This document shows positions 3,355 to 15,992 of a stretch of DNA of 64,000 nucleotides, one piece after another. The stretch's first letter is position 1; every line of letters begins with the position of its first letter. This DNA is from a virus. The notes under the pieces are model-generated. The model made no database searches. It was not told where the DNA came from and was given only the letters and a program-made list of their open reading frames with translations. Both the position numbers and the translations under genes were made by a program. The stretch is taken from IMG/VR virus record IMGVR_UViG_3300020187_000015, positions 32,001 through 96,000 of that record. One strand, written 5' to 3'.

Positions 3355-3957
3355 TCACATCGTCTCCAAGAATTCTTTCCAATTCTCTTTGATTAATTCT
3401 TCGTCTTCAAATTTTTCTCTTTTTTCGTGCCACTCTGGATTAATCCATCCAACCTCGGCGTAATAACCTTTTCCCCTCGTATCTACGTATTCATCGTTGA
3501 GTTCTAGTTTTTCACCATTGTAGTAAAGGTCTTGAATAAATTCTCCAAAATCTGTTTCAATAACAGCAGCGGAAATAAGTTTTGAATCGAAATCTTCGGC
3601 TTCTAATTCCCAACTGCAAAAATCACCTTTCTCTGCGCTGTGAAAAATCATTACTGGAACTGAACCATGTTCAGAGTCAGTTATATAAGCTTCGCGGCTC
3701 ATAAGGCAACTTACTGGTATGTCCTCTTCAATCTCTACCTCTTCTCCATCCTTAATTTCGTAAGCGGTCAAATTAGAATCGGAATACATTCCAAAGACGT
3801 GTTCTAAATCAGCATCGTCGTAAAAGGTATCTAAAGCCTCTTCAATTAAGTCTGGATGTTCTTTGTTCGCCCATTTATTTACAAAATCTGCGTCTTTAGT
3901 GCAGAGTGCGTACTCGCCGCCATAACCAGCACCTACAATTTTAAATTTTCTTTTCAT
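3355..3957 (-). CDS. hypothetical acidic phage protein
   Basis: 200-aa ORF in the minus-strand early gene run. Confidence 0.7.
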   Translation of the reverse strand: MKRKFKIVGAGYGGEYALCTKDADFVNKWANKEHPDLIEEALDTFYDDADLEHVFGMYSDSNLTAYEIKDGEEVEIEEDIPVSCLMSREAYITDSEHGSVPVMIFHSAEKGDFCSWELEAEDFDSKLISAAVIETDFGEFIQDLYYNGEKLELNDEYVDTRGKGYYAEVGWINPEWHEKREKFEDEELIKENWKEFLETM

Positions 3958-7314: not shown

Positions 7315-7556
7315 GTTAAATTCTTCCAAGCATTTTCACAATGCTTTTTATCTCTAAATAAAAAATTAATAAATTTATAAAATTTTCCTCTTACTGGTAA
7401 ATTTAATTGTTGCCAGTAGCCACAGTAGGCAGAAAAAGTTAGATTAGCATTTAAGCCAAAAACCGAGGCTAGTCCTTGCGACACAGCCTCGGCTAAATTC
7501 CAATAGTAAGACTTACCTCTCGATTTCGAGGGGTCAGCTTTTATAGTTATTCTCAT
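7311..7556 (-). CDS. hypothetical protein
   Basis: MRITIKADPSKSRGKSYYWN..., TAATG coupling to the upstream gene. Confidence 0.55.
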   Translation of the reverse strand: MRITIKADPSKSRGKSYYWNLAEAVSQGLASVFGLNANLTFSAYCGYWQQLNLPVRGKFYKFINFLFRDKKHCENAWKNLT

Positions 7557-8134
7557 TACCAAACAATAGCACTTAATTCTGCGAAACTAGTGGCGTTAGC
7601 GATTGCTTCGTTAAGTTCTTTTTCACGAGAAAATGCTGCCGACTTTCTTTGAATACCTTCCGAAATTGCTGTTTGAAACTGAGCCTTTGAAATTGTATTG
7701 TACGAACCATCGGCGTTCTTATAATCTGGGAAAGAGCCGCCGTCTGGCAGGATTTCGATAATTGTTTTTGTGTCGATGATGGTTTCTAGGTCGGCCTTAA
7801 ATTGAAAACCATCACTAGTCGTGAGAATAGAGTTGTATTCCGCATCTCTAGCTCTTTTAATCTCTGCAAACTTTCTAGATTTAAACATATCGGGATATTC
7901 AATAAATCTTTCTTCTCGTCGCTCCAGTCGTTTGATCTCCATCTTTTCTTGAAAAGTAACAACGTTATTGTTAATCAGGAAAAGTGGTTCGTCCGAAGAC
8001 TCAAAAGTTGCAGCCTTCGCATTCGAGATTTGAACGACTTCTTCAGAATTGGTATTATAAGAGCCATCTTCGTATGCATCTTCTTGCACTTCGATGATTC
8101 GTCTTGTTTCGATGTTAATTAGGGCGTTTTTCAT
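7556..8134 (-). CDS. DUF4376-like protein (tail-fibre assembly associated)
   Basis: C-terminal KFAEIKRARDAE...FQFKAD...YKNADGS...AIANATSFAELSAIVW pattern typical of DUF4376. Confidence 0.65.
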   Translation of the reverse strand: MKNALINIETRRIIEVQEDAYEDGSYNTNSEEVVQISNAKAATFESSDEPLFLINNNVVTFQEKMEIKRLERREERFIEYPDMFKSRKFAEIKRARDAEYNSILTTSDGFQFKADLETIIDTKTIIEILPDGGSFPDYKNADGSYNTISKAQFQTAISEGIQRKSAAFSREKELNEAIANATSFAELSAIVW

Positions 8135-8931
8135 AATTCGTTGATCCAGTTAAATTTTTGGTTAAGTTGTTCTGAGAGTTGGCGGCCAAGTGTTTCGTGC
8201 CAATCTTTTTTTAGTGGTTTTACTTCTTGGCGAATAACATGGTCTCCATATGGGAAACCTACATCATTTTCTTTGGTGTATTGTTCTACGTTGGAAGTGT
8301 TGTGAACGAAAGGCTCTTCTCCAAGAAACTCCCATACATTATTCATTACACTTTGTGGGTCTTCTGTTAAGTCTTCAGCATGAATAAACATTAATTTATC
8401 ACCAAATCTTTCGGCAGCTTCATGTAATCTCTCGATTGCAATACCAATTGGAGGGCTTTGTAGCCAACCTTGAGCGCGTTTATCGATAGTTGTCCAGCTT
8501 TGTGGGTTTTGTTGCTCCACTCCGTTAAAAACTTCTGGGTGCTGCTGGCGTTTCTTTTCCATGCTGGAAAGAATGCCGCGTATATCGCGGACTGGCACAA
8601 GAACCTTTGCGTCTGGCCACACCTTAAAAAGTTGATCTAGGTGACCAATCCAAGAGCGGCACTTGTCTACAACTACAGGGCGGTCTGTGATACTATTAAA
8701 TGCGTTCTCACATCCAGCCTTAACGTAATCCAAATACATAGGCTCAAGAACTTTTTCCATATCCACTGCCTTTGCCTCTTCAGTCTGAAAGACTTGGCGA
8801 GCTATGTAGCCAATTTCGTGCAAGGCACTTGTTGGTGTAGCGTGGACCCTTGGGTTCTGCGCTAGAAGATTGCAGAGCAGCGTGGAGCAAGCTCTTGGAA
8901 GACCAGATACGAAGTGTAATTTTTTACTCAT
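8131..8931 (-). CDS. sulfotransferase family protein
   Basis: 5'-PSB loop FVSGLPRACSTLL, VVDKCRSW, 3'-PB motif VRDIRGILSS, IHAEDLTEDP. Confidence 0.85.
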   Translation of the reverse strand: MSKKLHFVSGLPRACSTLLCNLLAQNPRVHATPTSALHEIGYIARQVFQTEEAKAVDMEKVLEPMYLDYVKAGCENAFNSITDRPVVVDKCRSWIGHLDQLFKVWPDAKVLVPVRDIRGILSSMEKKRQQHPEVFNGVEQQNPQSWTTIDKRAQGWLQSPPIGIAIERLHEAAERFGDKLMFIHAEDLTEDPQSVMNNVWEFLGEEPFVHNTSNVEQYTKENDVGFPYGDHVIRQEVKPLKKDWHETLGRQLSEQLNQKFNWINEL

Positions 8932-8937
8932 ATTATT

Positions 8938-8965
8938 ATGGTGTATCTAATCCTTTAAAAGTCAA
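8938..8965 (-). promoter_or_regulatory. putative sigma70-type promoter, near-leaderless
   Basis: TTGACT-N16-CACCAT-N6-ATG. Confidence 0.4.
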
Positions 8966-9982
8966 CTATAAATCAAAGAAAACTGTCAAACCTCCATATG
9001 TAGCTGGGTAAGTTGCTCCTACTGGAACGTGAATTGTTGAAGCCGCTACACCAGAAAACACATCAGAACCCAAGGCAGGAGCAGTTGTAGCTAGGCAGTT
9101 GATTGTAGCCAGGCTAGCGCAGTTATAGAATGCTTGACTCCCGATGCTGGTGACGCTGCTGGGAATGGTGATGCTCGCCAAGCTAGTGTTAATAAATAGT
9201 GTAGCCTCAATGCTTGTAAAGTCAACATTATTTGGGAGGGTAGCGCTTTCTAAGATACTGGAGTAACCGAATGCGTAAGACCCGATACTGGAGACGCTGT
9301 CAGGGATGATAATGCTCGTCAGGACGTTGCATCTACTGAATGCGCTAAAACCGATGCTGGTGAAGTTAACGTTATTTGGGAGGGTGACGCTCGTCAGGCT
9401 AGTGCAGTAATCGAATGCGTAAGACCCGATGCTGGTGACGCTGTCGGGAATCGTGACGTTCGTCAGGCCGCAGTTATAGAATGCTAGAGACCCGATGCTG
9501 GTGACGCTGTCTGGAATGGTGATGCTCGTCAGGGCGCTACAGTAAGCGAATGAGGAAGAATCGATGCTGGTGACGCTGTCGGGAATGGTGATGCTCGTCA
9601 GGCCAGAGCAGCTAACGAATGCGCCAGCCCCGATGCTGATCACGCTGTTGGGGATGGTGACGCTCGTCAGGCTGCTGCAGCTATTGAATGCGGAAGTCCC
9701 GAAGCTGGTGACGTTACTTCCAATGTAGATGCTAGTTAATGTCGTGTTACCATCATAACCATCTAAATCAGTAATAGTTGTAAGATTTCTAGTCTGTGTT
9801 ACGCCAGCCTGAATATCTGTAGTGAATGGCACAATAGATTCCTTTTCCGCATCACTCAGAGGAAGATCTGCCAACTTAATCTTTTTGGTCTGATTTAGGT
9901 CGCTGTCTACTAGTGGTAGCACATCGATTGCTGGATCAGCTGAAGTTAGTTCTGTTAGTTGTGATATTTTTTTGTCTGCCAT
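8966..9982 (-). CDS. BspA-type leucine-rich repeat (LRR_5) protein 1, putative virion adhesin
   Basis: About ten 23-aa LTSxTIPxSVTSIGxxAFxxC repeats; N-terminal MADKKISQLTELTSAD module. Confidence 0.9.
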   Translation of the reverse strand: MADKKISQLTELTSADPAIDVLPLVDSDLNQTKKIKLADLPLSDAEKESIVPFTTDIQAGVTQTRNLTTITDLDGYDGNTTLTSIYIGSNVTSFGTSAFNSCSSLTSVTIPNSVISIGAGAFVSCSGLTSITIPDSVTSIDSSSFAYCSALTSITIPDSVTSIGSLAFYNCGLTNVTIPDSVTSIGSYAFDYCTSLTSVTLPNNVNFTSIGFSAFSRCNVLTSIIIPDSVSSIGSYAFGYSSILESATLPNNVDFTSIEATLFINTSLASITIPSSVTSIGSQAFYNCASLATINCLATTAPALGSDVFSGVAASTIHVPVGATYPATYGGLTVFFDL

Positions 9983-9994
9983 GATTTTTAAAGA

Positions 9995-11827
9995 TTAAAT
10001 TATATTAACGGTTACGTTTGCGTTTCCACCAATATTCAGGCCAGATCCAGCTGTCCAACCAAGTCCAGCTAGTACATTTATAGTAAGAGGAGATGCCGTG
10101 CCGAGGAAAATATTAATTGCGTTGTCTATAACAGTTTTATCTACATTGCAGTTAATTGTATTTAGTAGATTACAACCCTGAAAAGCTCTCTCTCCTATGC
10201 TGCCGACACTAATAGGAATTTCAACAGTTGTCAAAACATCAAGATTGCGGAATGCGTATGAACCGATAGTCGTTACTGTAGTGGGTATGGTCAAACTCAG
10301 TAAAGATCTAAGTTCAGCAAATGTGAATTGCTCAATGGTAGTAAAGCCAGTGTTGCTTGGGAGGGTGAGACTTTCTACCCTGTCACAGCCTTGGAATGCT
10401 CTTAGTTTGATGGTGGAAACGCTGTCTGGGATGGTGATGCTCGTAAAGTCGCAGTTTTGGAATGCGCCTCTACCGATGCTGGTGACGCTGTTGGGAATGG
10501 TGACGCTCGACAGGCTAGTGCAGTTATAGAATAAGTAATCTTCGATGCTGGTGAAGCCAACATTATTTGGAAGAGTGGCGCTCGCGAGGTCAGTGCAGTT
10601 TTGAAATGCGCTATTCCCGATGCTGGTGACACTGTCGGGAATGATAATGCTCGTCAGGCTTTTGCAGTTGTCGAATGCATTCGCCCCGATAGTTTCGACG
10701 CTGTCGGGAATGTTGATGCTCGTCAGGCTGCTGCAGTTATCGAATGTGAACTCCCCGATGCTGGAGACGCTGTTGGGGATGGTGACGCTCGACAGGCTAG
10801 TGCAGCCAAGGAATGCGTAATCCCCGATGGTTTCGACGCTGTCGGGAATGACGATACTTGTAAGAAATACGCAAATGCCGAACGTATCTCCCGCAATCGA
10901 GGTAAACGCAGGATTATTTGGAAGCTTGATACTCGTTAGCGCAGAATAATAAAACGCAAAACTCCCAATGGTGGTGACACTATCAGGAATGGTGACGCTC
11001 GTCAGGCTGCTGCACCGATAGAATGCGCTAAACCCGATGCTGGTGACGCTGTCGGGAATGGTGACGATCGTCAGGCTGCTGCAGACAGAGAATGTGTTAT
11101 TCTCGATACTGGTGAAATTGTTATTATTTGGAAGTGTGACGCTCGCGAGGTCAGTGCAGCGATAGAATGCCGCAGACCCGATAGTTTCGACGCTGTCGGG
11201 AATGACGATACTCGTCAGGCTAGTGCAGAAATCGAATGCGGAATCCGCGATGCTGGTGACGCTATTGCCGATGGTTGCGCTCGCGAGGCTAGTGCAGCCA
11301 CGGATTGCGCGATCCCCGATGGTTTCGACGCTGTCGGGAATGACGATACTTGTAAGAGATATGCAACCGCCGAACGTATCTTGCTCAATCGAGGTAAACG
11401 CAGGATTATTTGGAAGCTTGATACTCGTTAGCGCAGAATAATAAAACGCAAAACTCCCGATAGTGGTGACACTATCAGGAATAAAAACGCTCTGATTTGT
11501 TAAATTAGCTCCTGCAAAATTGCTATTGCTAAACGCCGCCGATCCAATGCTAGTTACATTAGTCCCAATATAAATGCTGTCTGGTTGATACGTATTGTAA
11601 AACCCATCCGAATTACTAATAGTTGTAAGATTTCTAGTTTGCTCCACGCCAGCCTGAATATCTATCGTGTATGGGTATGCGGTATCTTCAGAGGCATCAC
11701 TAAGCGGAAAGTTGGCTAATTTAATTTTTTTAGTTTTACTTTCGCTGGAGTCTACAACTGGTAAAAAATCTACTGCCGAGTCTGCTGAAGTTATTTCTGT
11801 GAGGTCTGATATTTTTTTGTTTGCCAT
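9995..11827 (-). CDS. BspA-type LRR_5 protein 2, putative virion adhesin
   Basis: About twenty LRR_5 repeats; N-terminal MANKKISDLTEITSAD module. Confidence 0.9.
   Translation of the reverse strand: MANKKISDLTEITSADSAVDFLPVVDSSESKTKKIKLANFPLSDASEDTAYPYTIDIQAGVEQTRNLTTISNSDGFYNTYQPDSIYIGTNVTSIGSAAFSNSNFAGANLTNQSVFIPDSVTTIGSFAFYYSALTSIKLPNNPAFTSIEQDTFGGCISLTSIVIPDSVETIGDRAIRGCTSLASATIGNSVTSIADSAFDFCTSLTSIVIPDSVETIGSAAFYRCTDLASVTLPNNNNFTSIENNTFSVCSSLTIVTIPDSVTSIGFSAFYRCSSLTSVTIPDSVTTIGSFAFYYSALTSIKLPNNPAFTSIAGDTFGICVFLTSIVIPDSVETIGDYAFLGCTSLSSVTIPNSVSSIGEFTFDNCSSLTSINIPDSVETIGANAFDNCKSLTSIIIPDSVTSIGNSAFQNCTDLASATLPNNVGFTSIEDYLFYNCTSLSSVTIPNSVTSIGRGAFQNCDFTSITIPDSVSTIKLRAFQGCDRVESLTLPSNTGFTTIEQFTFAELRSLLSLTIPTTVTTIGSYAFRNLDVLTTVEIPISVGSIGERAFQGCNLLNTINCNVDKTVIDNAINIFLGTASPLTINVLAGLGWTAGSGLNIGGNANVTVNII
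10820..11458. repeat. internal direct repeat in LRR gene 2 (offset 492 bp)
   Basis: 10820-10865 = 11312-11357 (46 bp identical) and 10894-10966 = 11386-11458 (73 bp identical). Confidence 0.9.
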
Positions 11828-11839
11828 TGTGGGTTTACT

Positions 11840-12532
11840 TTATATTATGTTAACGGTCACGTTTGTGTTTCCGCCAATTGTTTGGCCAGGTCCAGCTGTC
11901 CAACCCAGTCCAGATGGCGCGTTTATAGTAAGAGGAGATGCCGTGCCATTGAAAACATTATCTAGGCCATTTATAATAGAAAAATCTACATTGCAGTTAA
12001 TTGTCGCTAAGTTAACGCAATTACGAAAAGCGTTATCCCCAATACTAGTCACACTGCTGGGAATGGTTAAGCTGTTCAGGACATTGCAGTTTTGAAGTGC
12101 GCTAACCCCGATGCTGGTAACGCTGTCTGGAATATTGATACTTTGGATAGCGAAGCAGAGCCGAAATGCATTTTGATCGATACTTGTGATACCGTTAGCG
12201 ATGGTTACATCCGTCAGGGCATCGCAACGAATGAATGCGGATTGCCCGATGCTGGGAACATTGCTCCCAATATAGATACTAGTTAAAGTAGTGTCATCGC
12301 CGTAATACTGATTGTAAGTCAACGGAGCAGTAATATTTCGTGTTTGCTCCACAGTGCCGTGAAAGTCTGTAGTATACGTATACACATGGTTTTTAGCCGA
12401 ATCGCTCAGTGGCAAATTACTAAATCTAATCTTTTTGGTCTCATCTGCGCTGGTATCTACAACAGGTAAGAGGTCAGTTGCTGCGTCAGCTGAAGTTAGT
12501 TCCGTAAGTTCTGATATTTTTTTGTCCGCCAT
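11840..12532 (-). CDS. BspA-type LRR_5 protein 3, putative virion adhesin
   Basis: About four to five LRR_5 repeats; same N-terminal module; C-terminus shared with protein 2; GTGTAA late motif upstream. Confidence 0.9.
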   Translation of the reverse strand: MADKKISELTELTSADAATDLLPVVDTSADETKKIRFSNLPLSDSAKNHVYTYTTDFHGTVEQTRNITAPLTYNQYYGDDTTLTSIYIGSNVPSIGQSAFIRCDALTDVTIANGITSIDQNAFRLCFAIQSINIPDSVTSIGVSALQNCNVLNSLTIPSSVTSIGDNAFRNCVNLATINCNVDFSIINGLDNVFNGTASPLTINAPSGLGWTAGPGQTIGGNTNVTVNII

Positions 12533-12546
12533 AGTATTTATTACAC
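12533..12546 (-). promoter_or_regulatory. putative late promoter motif
   Basis: GTGTAA-TAAATACT-ATG; same motif at 2765, 3271, 50493, 52636, 63614. Confidence 0.65.
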
Positions 12547-12559
12547 TATAATTTATAGG

Positions 12560-12940
12560 TTAATCTATAATACTAGCAAAATCATTTTCTAAGTTAGTCT
12601 TTGGCTTATCTTCAACGTGCTTATTACCTACTTCTTTTTCATATTTTTCAAAATATGATTTTTTGACTGGATCATATCCAAGCCTCTCTTCTCTTTCTAT
12701 GCTAAGCTCTTTAGAGTAGTCCAACATATCTCCATATGTGCCTTTCATTTTTCCAGTCTTATCAGTAAAAGCCACTTTGTCGAAGGCATCGATTTTACTA
12801 TGGGTACTGAAGTTTATTGGGGTATAAGATCTATCCCATTTTAAGCCGTCCTCATCATGAAAAACATGTTCATCGTTGACCGATTGAATTAACTCAATAT
12901 ACTCTTCTCTTTCTGGATGTTTGTAAATGTATTCTGGCAT
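12560..12940 (-). CDS. FmdB-like small protein lacking the zinc-ribbon cysteines
   Basis: MPEYIYKHPEREEYIELIQSVNDEH resembles MPxYxYxC...E start of FmdB family. Confidence 0.5.
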   Translation of the reverse strand: MPEYIYKHPEREEYIELIQSVNDEHVFHDEDGLKWDRSYTPINFSTHSKIDAFDKVAFTDKTGKMKGTYGDMLDYSKELSIEREERLGYDPVKKSYFEKYEKEVGNKHVEDKPKTNLENDFASIID

Positions 12941-12978
12941 AATACATTATGCTATAGTTTTAACCTTATTCCAATTAT

Positions 12979-14016
12979 TTAAGATATAATATCCTTAACG
13001 CTTTCTCCAGACTCCCACATTCTGCAGGACCAGTAGCGAGCTTTATATTTTGGACCAGGATTTGTATCGCACTTATGCCTAGCTCTAAATGACTTTCTGC
13101 GATCTGGATCATCTCTCTTTATTTCCATATTAGGATCTCCGAAATTAACCTTTACTACATTCCCCTTTTCGTTTTTAACATAAACCGAAAACTTCTTTGG
13201 ACCCTTTGGTGTTCTGAATGGTTTATTCAATTTGACACCCTTTTTTAATTCAGCCGCAAAAGTAAAAGAGTCAACTTCTTTTCCATCTCTATCCAAATCA
13301 TCGTCACAATCGCTAGACATTATACTCTTTGGTTTATTGTAAGAAGCATCATGAGAATCATTTTCGTTAAACCATTTTTGGAAAACGTCTTCGCTTGATC
13401 CTGGAAAATACATAGGAGTTCCGTCAGCCATTTCGTCTGTGTGAATTTCGCCCTTAAAACCAATTTGAATTGATTTTTTTCTTGCGCCTTCTGGAGTGGA
13501 AAAAATATAATCTTCCATTCCAGCTTTACACTTCGCCGCACCATTATGATCAGAGTCTTTCATTAATTTGCCATCAGGCATATAGTGATAACCTTCAGGA
13601 GCTTCTTTGGAGGCTTTTTTGGGTCTACCATCTTTTCCAGAAGGACCAGACATTGGGTGGCTCTTTGGCAATAAATCAGTGTCGTGTTTTCCACTTTTGT
13701 ATTTTAAATTTCTTAATGCATGCAAGAAGGAATTGACTCGCGCCATAGCCCATTGCTGCGAGCTTTTTACGCTTGGTCTAACACTCTGAGGGTTTGTTCG
13801 ATAGGCTCCAACCCCTCTTTTGTATACCGCTTCTAGTTTAGAGAGGGTAACTCTCTTTCTTTTGTCGTCTCCGAATTTTTCATTGTGTTCTTTTACCTTC
13901 TTTTTCAAGGATTCTGCAAGAGACGCTTCACTCATCTCTATAAAGCATAGCTCATCTTCTGAGAAAGATACTTCCATTATTTGTTTTCCGTTTTTTAAAA
14001 AATTACGAATGTCCAT
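12979..14016 (-). CDS. multi-module basic protein (putative head-associated/internal protein)
   Basis: Modules: AVYKRGVGAY...QWAMARVNSF; PEGYHYMPDGKLM; FSTPEGARKKS...GEIH; KKFSVYVK...VNFGDPNM...RRKSFRARHKC...ARYWSC. Start at ATG 14016 behind a GTGTAT motif. Confidence 0.6.
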   Translation of the reverse strand: MDIRNFLKNGKQIMEVSFSEDELCFIEMSEASLAESLKKKVKEHNEKFGDDKRKRVTLSKLEAVYKRGVGAYRTNPQSVRPSVKSSQQWAMARVNSFLHALRNLKYKSGKHDTDLLPKSHPMSGPSGKDGRPKKASKEAPEGYHYMPDGKLMKDSDHNGAAKCKAGMEDYIFSTPEGARKKSIQIGFKGEIHTDEMADGTPMYFPGSSEDVFQKWFNENDSHDASYNKPKSIMSSDCDDDLDRDGKEVDSFTFAAELKKGVKLNKPFRTPKGPKKFSVYVKNEKGNVVKVNFGDPNMEIKRDDPDRRKSFRARHKCDTNPGPKYKARYWSCRMWESGESVKDIIS

Positions 14017-14043
14017 AGTAGGTATTATACACAATAATATTGC

Positions 14044-14285: not shown

Positions 14286-15397
14286 TATATTTTTATTAGT
14301 TCTAGTATTTCGTCACAGAATTTTGCATCTGTGAACTGAGATGGTAGCTTTTTGCCGCCTTCATTAATTTTCCCATCAAGGACATTTTTAACGGCAGAAT
14401 CTAATGAAGTAGACATATTTTCTATATCTAAATCATAAATATTTCCGCAATTAAATGGAGACCCCTGTTGAAAGAAAAGATTATCGATTGCTGAAATTTT
14501 ACCATTAGGAGCCACTTTAATAGAATTACTATCAGTTGCCCACTCTTTAATTCCAGAATTAAAATTAACTACACATTGCTTGCCGAGTCCAGCCATATGG
14601 AAAGAAGGTAGAGACCAAGATTCTCCACCGCTTCCATCAACAACAATGTCTGCAATATTATATGCTTGATTCAACTCCGTTAACTTTCTAAAGTAGGGCA
14701 TAAAGATCATGTTATGGGGAACATCTCCATCACAAGCCTCGACTACTTTCATTTTGTTTATCTCCATAGATTTATTCGGGTCTTGATGGAAAAAGGGATT
14801 GAATATATGAAGATGTATCTTGAATCTCTTATCATTCCCAAATTTATTTTTTAACAAATTAATGATACTAGCAGTATGCTTTCTTTTTTCAAATTTGCCA
14901 GCTAAAGCAATTACAATTTCATTATTTTCATACTTTTTAACTTCAGTCTCTTTAAAAGCAAGGGAGTTGTAACCCAAGTTAATTGTTTTGTGGTTATCAA
15001 CTCCATATTCTTTGCAGACCTCTTCCGTGAAAGAACAAGGTGATGCAACTTTGTCATAGGAGTTCAAAATATTTTTTTCAGTCGCAGTAAGTTGATCTAG
15101 CTCATGGAAAAAATAAAGGAAGGGGTTTTTACTGATTGAATCTTGAGAGCCATTGATGTGCCAAATTCTCAAGGACGGTTCAGTTCTCTTGAAGTCTTTC
15201 AATGATTTTTGAGTACACAATTGCAACCAAGCCATGAACTGTTCAGGAATGATATCTTCATAAGAAGATAGATCTATTCCAGCTATTGGAAAAATATTAG
15301 GCTCCAGCTTTCTAGAGAATAGCTCATATAGAAGATTGGTAGATACTTGACCTAAGCTAGTGCCATTAATGGGGACCTGCAAACTAAAATTACTCAT
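14285..15397 (-). CDS. glycosyltransferase, GT4-like (GT-B)
   Basis: AGKFEKRKH, YNIADIVV..SGGESWSLPSFH (variant of the EGFGLP motif). Confidence 0.8.
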   Translation of the reverse strand: MSNFSLQVPINGTSLGQVSTNLLYELFSRKLEPNIFPIAGIDLSSYEDIIPEQFMAWLQLCTQKSLKDFKRTEPSLRIWHINGSQDSISKNPFLYFFHELDQLTATEKNILNSYDKVASPCSFTEEVCKEYGVDNHKTINLGYNSLAFKETEVKKYENNEIVIALAGKFEKRKHTASIINLLKNKFGNDKRFKIHLHIFNPFFHQDPNKSMEINKMKVVEACDGDVPHNMIFMPYFRKLTELNQAYNIADIVVDGSGGESWSLPSFHMAGLGKQCVVNFNSGIKEWATDSNSIKVAPNGKISAIDNLFFQQGSPFNCGNIYDLDIENMSTSLDSAVKNVLDGKINEGGKKLPSQFTDAKFCDEILELIKI

Positions 15398-15914
15398 TAT
15401 TTAAAATCTGTTTATATCTATCTAAAATTCTATTGTACTTTTGACGAATCCATTCGCCAGAATATTTGTTATTCATGTCTTTAGCTATCTCTGAAAATGT
15501 CATTCCTGACAACCTTTTTTCTAAAATTTCTCTATTTTCTTTATTTTGAATATCATTTTCAACATAACTCAATAACTCCCTTTTACCGTAATTGGGCATG
15601 TGTACTAAGTGGTTATCCTCTATTTCTACGAAATACTTCTTTGAGCTGCAAAGGCTCTGACATGTCCAAAATGCTTTATTGCCTATCCAGGTTGAGAATT
15701 TGCTCCTACTAACATCAAATTCTTTTGCAGCATCATAAAAAAAACTTAAAGGATTTTCTTTTAAATCTTCAATCTCCATTATTCCAGAGTAAGCATTGGC
15801 CTTTTTATAAAAGATTCCGCTGTGCCGCTCTTGTAACTCTTTCAAACAGTTATTTACGTCAATACCATTTTTTATATTTTCAGTAAGCTCTAAATCAGAT
15901 AAATCATCAATCAT
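15390..15914 (-). CDS. phage RNA polymerase sigma factor (sigma70/ECF-like)
   Basis: Region-2-like AAKEFDVSRSKFSTWI and region-4 HTH MTFSEIAKDMNNKYSGEWIRQ; likely start ATG 15914. Confidence 0.75.
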   Translation of the reverse strand: MIDDLSDLELTENIKNGIDVNNCLKELQERHSGIFYKKANAYSGIMEIEDLKENPLSFFYDAAKEFDVSRSKFSTWIGNKAFWTCQSLCSSKKYFVEIEDNHLVHMPNYGKRELLSYVENDIQNKENREILEKRLSGMTFSEIAKDMNNKYSGEWIRQKYNRILDRYKQILNNE

Positions 15915-15921
15915 TCCTCCT

Positions 15922-15949
15922 AATATACTACAAATAAAACAAATGTCAA
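15922..15949 (-). promoter_or_regulatory. sigma70-type promoter of the sigma gene (divergent region)
   Basis: TTGACA-N16-TATATT-N7-ATG; a divergent TTGACT lies at 15957 on the plus strand. Confidence 0.6.
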
Positions 15950-15992
15950 TAAAAAGTTGACTTTTTTGCAAGATATTTTATATGTTTGATAA

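Follow-up and report, generated by a model that had tools for sequence, protein, structure and literature searches.

The DNA analyzed here, from an uncultured, AT-rich marine phage, is a stretch of 64,000 nucleotides (positions 32001-96000 of IMG/VR record IMGVR_UViG_3300020187_000015; hereafter the window) that carries a cluster of three tandem genes, g1, g2, and g3, whose proteins are largely built of leucine-rich repeats (LRRs) of the LRR_5 family. Our reading, to which we assign a probability of about 0.72, is that g1-g3 encode probable receptor-binding proteins which evolve by ordinary germline processes and whose repeats were most likely captured from marine Opitutia. An earlier note made from the sequence alone had instead seen in the cluster an assembly system analogous to the variable lymphocyte receptors (VLRs) of lampreys, and nothing at the locus points to such a programmed, immune-system-like generator of diversity. 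The three genes and their parts are the following (window coordinates):

g1, 8966-9982, minus strand: open reading frame (ORF) of 338 amino acids, Pfam LRR_5 E 5e-83, 275.7 bits
g1 parts, minus strand: N-terminal anchor 9725-9982; nine units 9098-9724; type-B C-cap 8969-9097, ending YGGLTVFFDL
g2, 9995-11827, minus strand: ORF of 610 amino acids, Pfam LRR_5 E 8e-128, 420.5 bits
g2 parts, minus strand: anchor 11570-11827; ca. 20 units 10151-11569; type-A C-cap 9998-10150, ending NVTVNII
g3, 11840-12532, minus strand: ORF of 230 amino acids, Pfam LRR_5 E 9e-28, 97.2 bits
g3 parts, minus strand: anchor 12272-12532 (amino acids 1-87); four units 11996-12271; type-A C-cap 11843-11995, ending NVTVNII

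Each protein thus combines an N-terminal module of ca. 86 amino acids, 56-62% identical among g1, g2, and g3, with an LRR_5 array and one of two C-caps. All three score far above the curated cut-off of 27.7 bits for Pfam LRR_5 (PF13306), to which matches in the whole contig are confined to these genes, and the three LRR_5 genes of different repeat number that the note had described indeed comprise 9, 20, and 4 units. The 33 units measure 22-25 residues each, except for an irregular first unit of g2 with 29 residues, and their 23-residue consensus LxxIxIPxSVxxIGxxAFxxCxx follows the LRR_5 pattern. An AlphaFold2 model of g3 has a predicted local distance difference test score (pLDDT) of 85, with values >90 from residue 51 onward, and its top Foldseek matches are 4fs7, 6mlx, 4gt6, and 4cp6 (E 8e-7 to 1.6e-4).

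The probable role of these proteins is suggested by the company that their parts keep elsewhere. A 40-residue N-terminus (MADKKISELT..VDTS..TKK) heads proteins of 141-1152 amino acids in many other viral contigs; among ten such proteins that we scanned, most have a match to a tail fibre, tail spike, or tail protein PHROG, and 4/10 carry a Peptidase_S74 chaperone domain. Conversely, the same LRR-plus-cap module is found in other phage lineages behind different N-terminal modules, in tandem sets adjoining a sulfotransferase gene (e.g., three tandem LRR-plus-cap genes next to such a gene in L303). Because exchangeable receptor-binding proteins are usually built in this way, g1-g3 are probably paralogous tail-fibre-like adhesins, i.e., putative receptor-binding proteins with a predicted location in the virion.

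At the DNA level, the arrays have a period of 69 bp, as had been estimated before, and each unit is laid out as a conserved 42-nt scaffold block and a variable 27-nt block. The 31-nt scaffold string singled out in the note has one exact copy, five copies with at most one mismatch, and eight with at most three mismatches. Its claim that the scaffold is kept even at synonymous sites holds beyond chance, since codon choice is tied to the repeat column within Thr, Ile, Ser, Ala, Leu, and Gly (permutation p <= 0.0008); the Thr codon, e.g., is ACC at columns 8 and 25 but ACT at column 19 and ACG at column 22. The repeats are also more GC-rich than their surroundings, as described earlier (0.50-0.53 in the arrays vs 0.33-0.40 in the flanks), and at third codon positions (GC3) the arrays are the main outliers of a genome with a median of 0.34, reaching 0.68 in g1, 0.56 in g2, and 0.50 in g3 vs 0.21-0.37 in the sequence coding for the N- and C-termini of these proteins. 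Across units, the GC3 of the scaffold correlates with closeness to the consensus (rho 0.64, p 9e-5), being 0.8-0.94 in near-consensus units and 0.24-0.53 in the conserved terminal ones.

Variability is concentrated in six columns per unit, the three xx pairs of G-xx-AF-xx-C-xx-L, with an amino-acid entropy of 2.6-3.2 bits compared to 0.2-1.2 bits at the most conserved scaffold columns and <=2.0 bits at the remaining ones. The third base of these codons is column-specific (T, C, T, C, T, C), and nucleotide diversity is 0.67 at position 1 and 0.70 at position 2, near saturation, vs 0.53 at position 3. Diversity at third bases is about equal in scaffold codons (0.47), as expected of shared ancestry combined with fast nonsynonymous change. 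Since the invariant codons GCA TTC and TGC separate the variable ones, the differences are point substitutions and not swapped tracts. In addition, g2 contains an internal duplication:

11273-11482, minus strand: copy A of the duplication in g2 (amino acids 116-185), three units, 70 codons
10781-10990, minus strand: copy B of the duplication in g2 (amino acids 280-349), three units, 70 codons, offset from copy A by 492 bp

The two copies are identical over stretches of 46 bp and 73 bp, which enclose a patch of 28 bp with seven substitutions, all nonsynonymous. The earlier description of exclusively amino-acid-changing differences is therefore true for this patch but selective, because over the whole 70-codon core 4 synonymous differences stand beside 13 nonsynonymous ones, of which 9 fall in the 17 variable codons. 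Segments shared between the genes were likewise borne out: N-terminal DNA common to g1 and g2 (9772-9818 vs 11617-11663) is identical at 42/47 positions and C-terminal DNA common to g2 and g3 (10081-10102 vs 11926-11947) at 22/22, so that the coordinates and identities reported for them all hold in the sequence.

Among paralogous units, dN/dS is 0.23 in the scaffold, whereas the variable columns reach ca. 1.1 over all pairs and 2.25 between nearest neighbours. In 12 recent unit pairs with near-identical scaffolds it rises to 4.6 (bootstrap 3.1-6.8), an estimate that is biased because small scaffold distance was the criterion for choosing the pairs and one unit recurs in several of them. In line with the interpretation in the note, the six variable codons of recently related units thus evolve at a far higher rate than synonymous sites. 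Between strains, five g3 orthologs show a dN/dS of 1.62 in variable columns and 0.42 in the scaffold; scaffold values of true orthologs are 0.3-0.4 overall, and those of the neighbouring sulfotransferase gene are 0.03-0.07. The hypervariable columns, whose exposure is deduced from the repeat register and a DSSP string, sit in the xxAFxxCxx segment and outside the LxxIxI strand of the concave sheet, so that the variable surface is not the one used by VLRs. The fast change at these exposed positions is probably adaptive. Lower synonymous divergence of scaffolds between strains, which we considered as a general property of the arrays, was rejected: the proportion of synonymous differences (pS) in g3 is 0.021 for the scaffold vs 0.11-0.12 for the termini, and this is reversed in g2 with 0.22-0.24 for the scaffold vs 0.10 for the N-terminus. 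The low scaffold pS of g3 is probably due to a recent local sweep or exchange.

Comparison with IMG/VR relatives revealed how the locus changes between strains. The flanks are well kept: L013 is 96.2% identical along 6.4 kb of upstream sequence, and L009 is 94.3% identical along 2.9 kb of downstream sequence. Inside the LRR genes, identity falls to 65-90%, with insertions and deletions of units. Related phages have between 1 and 5 LRR genes. Orthologs of g1 comprise 198 amino acids with 3 units, the 9 units of the window, or as many as 1187 amino acids with ca. 45 units, all of them LRR_5. In L009, g1 equals the g1 of the window minus exactly 420 bp (six units), and its matches to the window from either side overlap by ca. 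50 nt within the scaffold, which places the crossover there. Orthologs of g2 (354, 556, and >=400 amino acids) keep the N-terminus with the first 3 units as well as the last 4 units, while the middle differs in unit number and content. The g2 of L009 bears the g1-type cap, i.e., C-caps have been exchanged between paralogs. Orthologs of g3 share 83-96% amino-acid identity, and g3 alleles are mosaics with N- or C-terminal pieces resembling g2; the DNA-level comparisons were made with relatives other than the closest ones (P0001-P0003, 94-96% amino-acid identity). The recombination between scaffolds that the note had postulated is hence real over evolutionary time, as seen in the L009 junction, the variable middle of g2, and the swapped caps.

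In a more distant clade (L016-L019), 84-100% of units have a different synonymous scaffold, with Ser encoded by TCG not AGC, Gly by GGA not GGG, Val by GTG not GTC, and Ile by ATT not ATC, which reflects either homogenization within the lineage or a separate origin of the arrays. In these phages, the gene for an extra protein of 733 amino acids separates the LRR genes from the sulfotransferase gene. Between samples (L011/L012, L016/17/18, and L021/22/23), arrays measuring 1.4-3.6 kb show 100% identity apart from one mismatch in one pair, and the 45-unit g1 of L011 and L012 agrees at 3564/3564 nt. Such identity in independent assemblies means that the arrays are not assembly artefacts. In L011 and L012 (positions 8001-13346), which come from different samples, g1 and g2 are 100% identical and both g3 (pS 0.075) and the upstream genes differ, as if the g1-g2 module had recently passed from one phage strain to another.

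The GC-rich scaffold most likely stems from secreted LRR_5 genes of marine Opitutia (Verrucomicrobiota). An exact 24-nt core of the scaffold occurs in >120 stretches of bacterial genomes, mostly of the Planctomycetes-Verrucomicrobia-Chlamydiae (PVC) group, i.e., Verrucomicrobiota, Kiritimatiellia, and Lentisphaerota, and the best longer matches are secreted LRR_5 genes in metagenome-assembled genomes of marine Opitutia (78% identity across 451 nt and 83% across 315 nt). For the g1 array, these matches outscore the one between g1 and its own paralog g2. One Opitutia unit shares 51/51 scaffold nt with two phage units, and exact runs between phage and Opitutia reach 42-56 nt. Beyond the 24-mer, Opitutales loci from the Fram Strait match the phage consensus at 0.91-0.94 compared to a median of 0.77 over 107 loci. 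The Opitutia genes are genuine secreted bacterial genes, as they encode signal peptides and a C-terminal domain of their own and adjoin housekeeping genes, and their GC content of 0.50-0.55 equals that of the phage arrays. Outside the LRR genes, tblastx of the contig against the Opitutia and PVC loci gave 21 high-scoring segment pairs, mostly short and one longer. The simplest reading of these similarities is that bacterial LRR_5 DNA was captured, then amplified, and is slowly decaying toward phage composition; we infer the direction from bacteria to phage, and Opitutia may be the host group of this phage. Among records classed as viral, L299 (IMGVR_UViG_3300022923_002484, 1-1312) has an LRR_5 gene whose product carries a signal peptide of the Opitutia type, MRLLTIFLSIALLGNAGAA; the record must be a bacterial fragment that was misclassified, or else a phage or prophage with the bacterial form of the gene.

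Taken together, the evolution of g1-g3 is most likely explained by ordinary germline processes at work in repetitive DNA. Whole units would be gained or lost by replication slippage or unequal homologous recombination, with the 42-nt scaffold block as the site of the breakpoints. Through exchange between paralogs as well as co-infecting strains, caps, N-terminal pieces, and entire arrays would be swapped. Change at the six outward-facing positions of each unit would be driven by selection or, at the least, by a strong relaxation of constraint. The GC-rich codon scaffold itself would be an inheritance from marine Opitutia LRR_5 genes that decays toward phage composition in the older terminal units.

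A programmed cassette library, in which the three genes would be reshuffled at high frequency by gene conversion between scaffolds to switch host range like VLRs or the pilin and vlsE systems, would explain why conserved 42-nt scaffold blocks flank variable 27-nt blocks, why identical 46- and 73-bp blocks surround a variable 28-bp patch, why one g1 unit and one g2 unit share 51/51 scaffold nt and differ at 9/18 variable nt, and why array content differs between strains. We nevertheless consider it highly improbable. All three genes are complete with start, anchor, array, cap, and stop, and we found no silent or truncated donor cassettes and no incomplete expression gene. Searches of the contig for dCMP_cyt_deam_1, RecA, RecT, ERF, Rad52, Resolvase, and Phage_integrase gave no match, a result that covers these named families on 105.8 kb of sequence and that divergent enzymes or genes in a missing part of the genome could escape. 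The identity of 1.4-3.6-kb arrays between independent metagenomes argues against rapid programmed variation, and the point substitutions between invariant codons argue against cassettes. Template-directed, adenine-specific hypermutation as in diversity-generating retroelements (DGRs) would account for the NNC/NNT pattern of the variable codons, given their column-specific third base, near-saturated positions 1 and 2, and the frequent AAC at one variable column. In line with the note, which had invoked no reverse transcriptase, RVT_1 has no match at E <= 1 in the 105.8-kb contig, which may be incomplete, and the contig contains no LRR-like template copy outside g1-g3. The duplicated units differ by C/G, G/T, and C/T pairs too and hence not in an adenine-specific way, third-base diversity is about the same in variable and scaffold codons, and the target would be a multi-repeat LRR protein instead of a C-type lectin or immunoglobulin-like variable region. 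The missing reverse transcriptase match in the contig, the codon diversity, and the non-adenine changes led us to reject a DGR as the reason for the fixed third base, and we give this alternative next to no credence.

Two further alternatives concern the role of the proteins and the tempo of their exchange with bacteria. LRR domains often bind proteins, and the arrays resemble the bacterium's own secreted proteins, so that g1-g3 might be injected or secreted effectors or decoys outside the virion that bind a host protein or defence component. Against this, their N-terminal module is common to proteins with Peptidase_S74 or tail-fibre and tail-spike PHROG matches, the LRR-plus-cap module stands on other phage N-terminal modules at the same site beside the sulfotransferase gene, and neighbouring genes match tail-fibre families; we regard this possibility as quite improbable. 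Less far-fetched, though still unlikely, is a continuing exchange in which phage arrays are repeatedly refreshed from the host LRR_5 family via scaffold handles, with the host genome serving as a cassette library for the middles of the fibre arrays. Constant re-import would keep the scaffold GC-rich, and near-consensus units have a GC3 of 0.8-0.94, far from the genome median, whereas the stable terminal units have decayed; moreover, the exact 42-56-nt matches to Opitutia take in variable codons, and the g1 array resembles Opitutia genes more closely than it does g2. However, no phage unit is near-identical to a bacterial unit over scaffold plus variable codons (best 63/69 and 60/69), a constrained scaffold with codon bias can yield high identity, and the same pattern would result from GC-biased gene conversion within the arrays or from one old transfer with later amplification.

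Besides the bias of the 12-pair estimate, several points speak against our own reading of g1-g3 as captured, adaptively diversifying receptor-binding proteins. The virion presence and receptor binding of these proteins are predictions from sequence, the anchor region is folded with low confidence in the g3 model (pLDDT 41-61 at residues 1-50), and LRR solenoids are usually monomeric while fibres are trimeric. Relaxed constraint instead of positive selection is possible at the variable columns, given that their dN/dS in orthologs is about 1 overall (1.62 in g3 and 1.04 in the last g2 units) and <1, on very few sites, in the first g2 units. With regard to the source of the repeats, the search that led to the bacterial loci started from a 24-mer of the phage itself, and DNA identity is raised wherever a conserved motif is under strong codon bias; transfer, its direction, and the host are therefore not proven. 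Finally, a phage with 37% GC on a host with 50-55% GC would be unusual, though not unparalleled, as T4 and E. coli differ by a similar gap.

The IMG/VR contig around the window measures 105,788 bp, with 37% GC and an estimated completeness of 62% (CheckV), and its gene content includes a ribonucleotide reductase, a DnaB-type helicase, and glycosyltransferases. Contigs carrying the g3 relatives P0009, P0010, P0011, and P0018 are 104-106 kb long, near the present 105.8 kb, so the genome may be nearly complete despite the CheckV estimate, or assemblies may break at the same place. Among 50,697 phage records, blastn and megablast gave no match and hence no cultured relative, and tblastn with g2 found only LRR proteins of <45% identity, mostly in gut phage records; a host could not be assigned from these comparisons. 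The following features surround the cluster:

7556-8134, minus strand: DUF4376 gene (PF14301, E 2.5e-9) with a weak match to phrog_1348, tail fibre protein (E 3.8e-5)
8131-8931, minus strand: sulfotransferase gene (Pfam Sulfotransfer_3, E 1.8e-16), downstream of the LRR cluster in all related phages
12533-12548, minus strand: 16-nt element TAGTGTAATAAATACT, abutting the g3 start codon

The immediate flanks of the cluster are the sulfotransferase gene and genes without assigned function. The DUF4376-like gene that the note had placed beside the LRR genes is thus present but not adjacent, because the sulfotransferase gene intervenes. Besides the weak match of the DUF4376 gene, one neighbour protein of 661 amino acids matches a tail-fibre PHROG. 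Transcription of each gene from its own late promoter, as proposed before, did not stand up: only 12-nt spacers precede g2 and g1, and the T4-type late promoter motif CTATAAAT is not enriched in the window (9 found vs 6.3 expected). Comparing upstream sequences by eye, we instead noted that TAGTGTAATAAATACT is kept in L009-L012, L014, and L021 even where the upstream gene differs; it is the only upstream element conserved in relatives and may serve all three genes as a leader or promoter. We saw no Shine-Dalgarno sequence upstream of g1, g2, or g3. Just upstream of the fibre region, a 193-amino-acid ORF (15390-15971, minus strand) resembles a small sigma factor of the sigma-70/extracytoplasmic function type, with region 2 and region 4 features judged by eye. 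Window positions 12979-14034 (minus strand) encode a 351-amino-acid protein with DUF5824 and DUF5754 that has at least 592 IMG/VR relatives at ca. 40% identity and partial matches in Salinibacter, Roseobacter, and Pelagibacter phages, some of them annotated as major capsid protein.

Fibre genes with LRR heads are common in uncultured phages. The locus shows how such heads evolve, i.e., by scaffold recombination, by exchange of caps and arrays, and by change at six positions per repeat, and the results obtained here remove the claim of an assembly resembling adaptive immunity. To our knowledge, very few phages are known for Opitutia, and the scaffold match to these bacteria is a testable host lead for a widespread group of marine phages. 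It also makes it conceivable that phages draw receptor-binding diversity from host adhesin families, and a continuing exchange, if true, would tie abundant marine phages of 105-140 kb to Opitutia (Verrucomicrobiota).

Among known systems, bacterial proteins of the BspA/TpLRR type, such as BACOVA_04585 (4fs7), T. pallidum TpLRR (6mlx), and pneumococcal PcpA (4cp6), resemble g1-g3 in repeat unit, hidden Markov model matches, and fold. Unlike g1-g3 with their phage fibre-type N-terminus and small phage-specific C-caps, these proteins carry a signal peptide and a cell-surface anchor. Lamprey VLRs as well as pilE/pilS and vlsE are similar in the sequence identity of module borders, which could guide recombination, and in the conserved ends and variable middle of LRR modules, but the locus described here has no incomplete expression site, silent cassettes, or deaminase match, and its variation lies between strains and not within a lineage. 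With the DGR that diversifies Mtd of Bordetella phage BPP-1 it shares variability focused on a few codons with the third base kept, though there is no reverse transcriptase match, template repeat, or adenine specificity here and the fold is different.

Plant R-gene clusters are the textbook case of unequal crossing-over combined with diversifying selection on exposed x residues. In Protochlamydia, the lgr genes encode concatenated LRRs and are GC-rich within an AT-rich genome (PMC2216083). Our locus is like both in its tandem paralogs, in-register gain and loss of units, conserved structural scaffold with fast exposed positions, and GC-rich arrays, yet it is part of a virus genome and its fastest positions are found in xxAFxxCxx and not in the LxxLxL strand; the Protochlamydia repeats are, furthermore, ribonuclease inhibitor-like units of 28 residues, unlike the 23-residue units of g1-g3. 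Our searches of open-access papers turned up no account of phages with tandem LRR_5 fibre genes. For phage Goslar, LRR heads behind a virion anchor have been predicted, with DUF7941 proteins carrying LRR or carbohydrate-binding heads (bioRxiv 10.64898/2026.04.21.720040). Such modular receptor-binding proteins are like g1-g3 in their conserved anchor, variable head, tandem paralogs, and swapped heads or caps. Unlike them, the proteins described here have a different anchor, vary from 3 to ca. 45 units between close strains, and have a scaffold that matches bacterial genes. What is new here is the scale of unit-number change between close strains, the crossover within the scaffold, and the link to marine Opitutia at the level of DNA.

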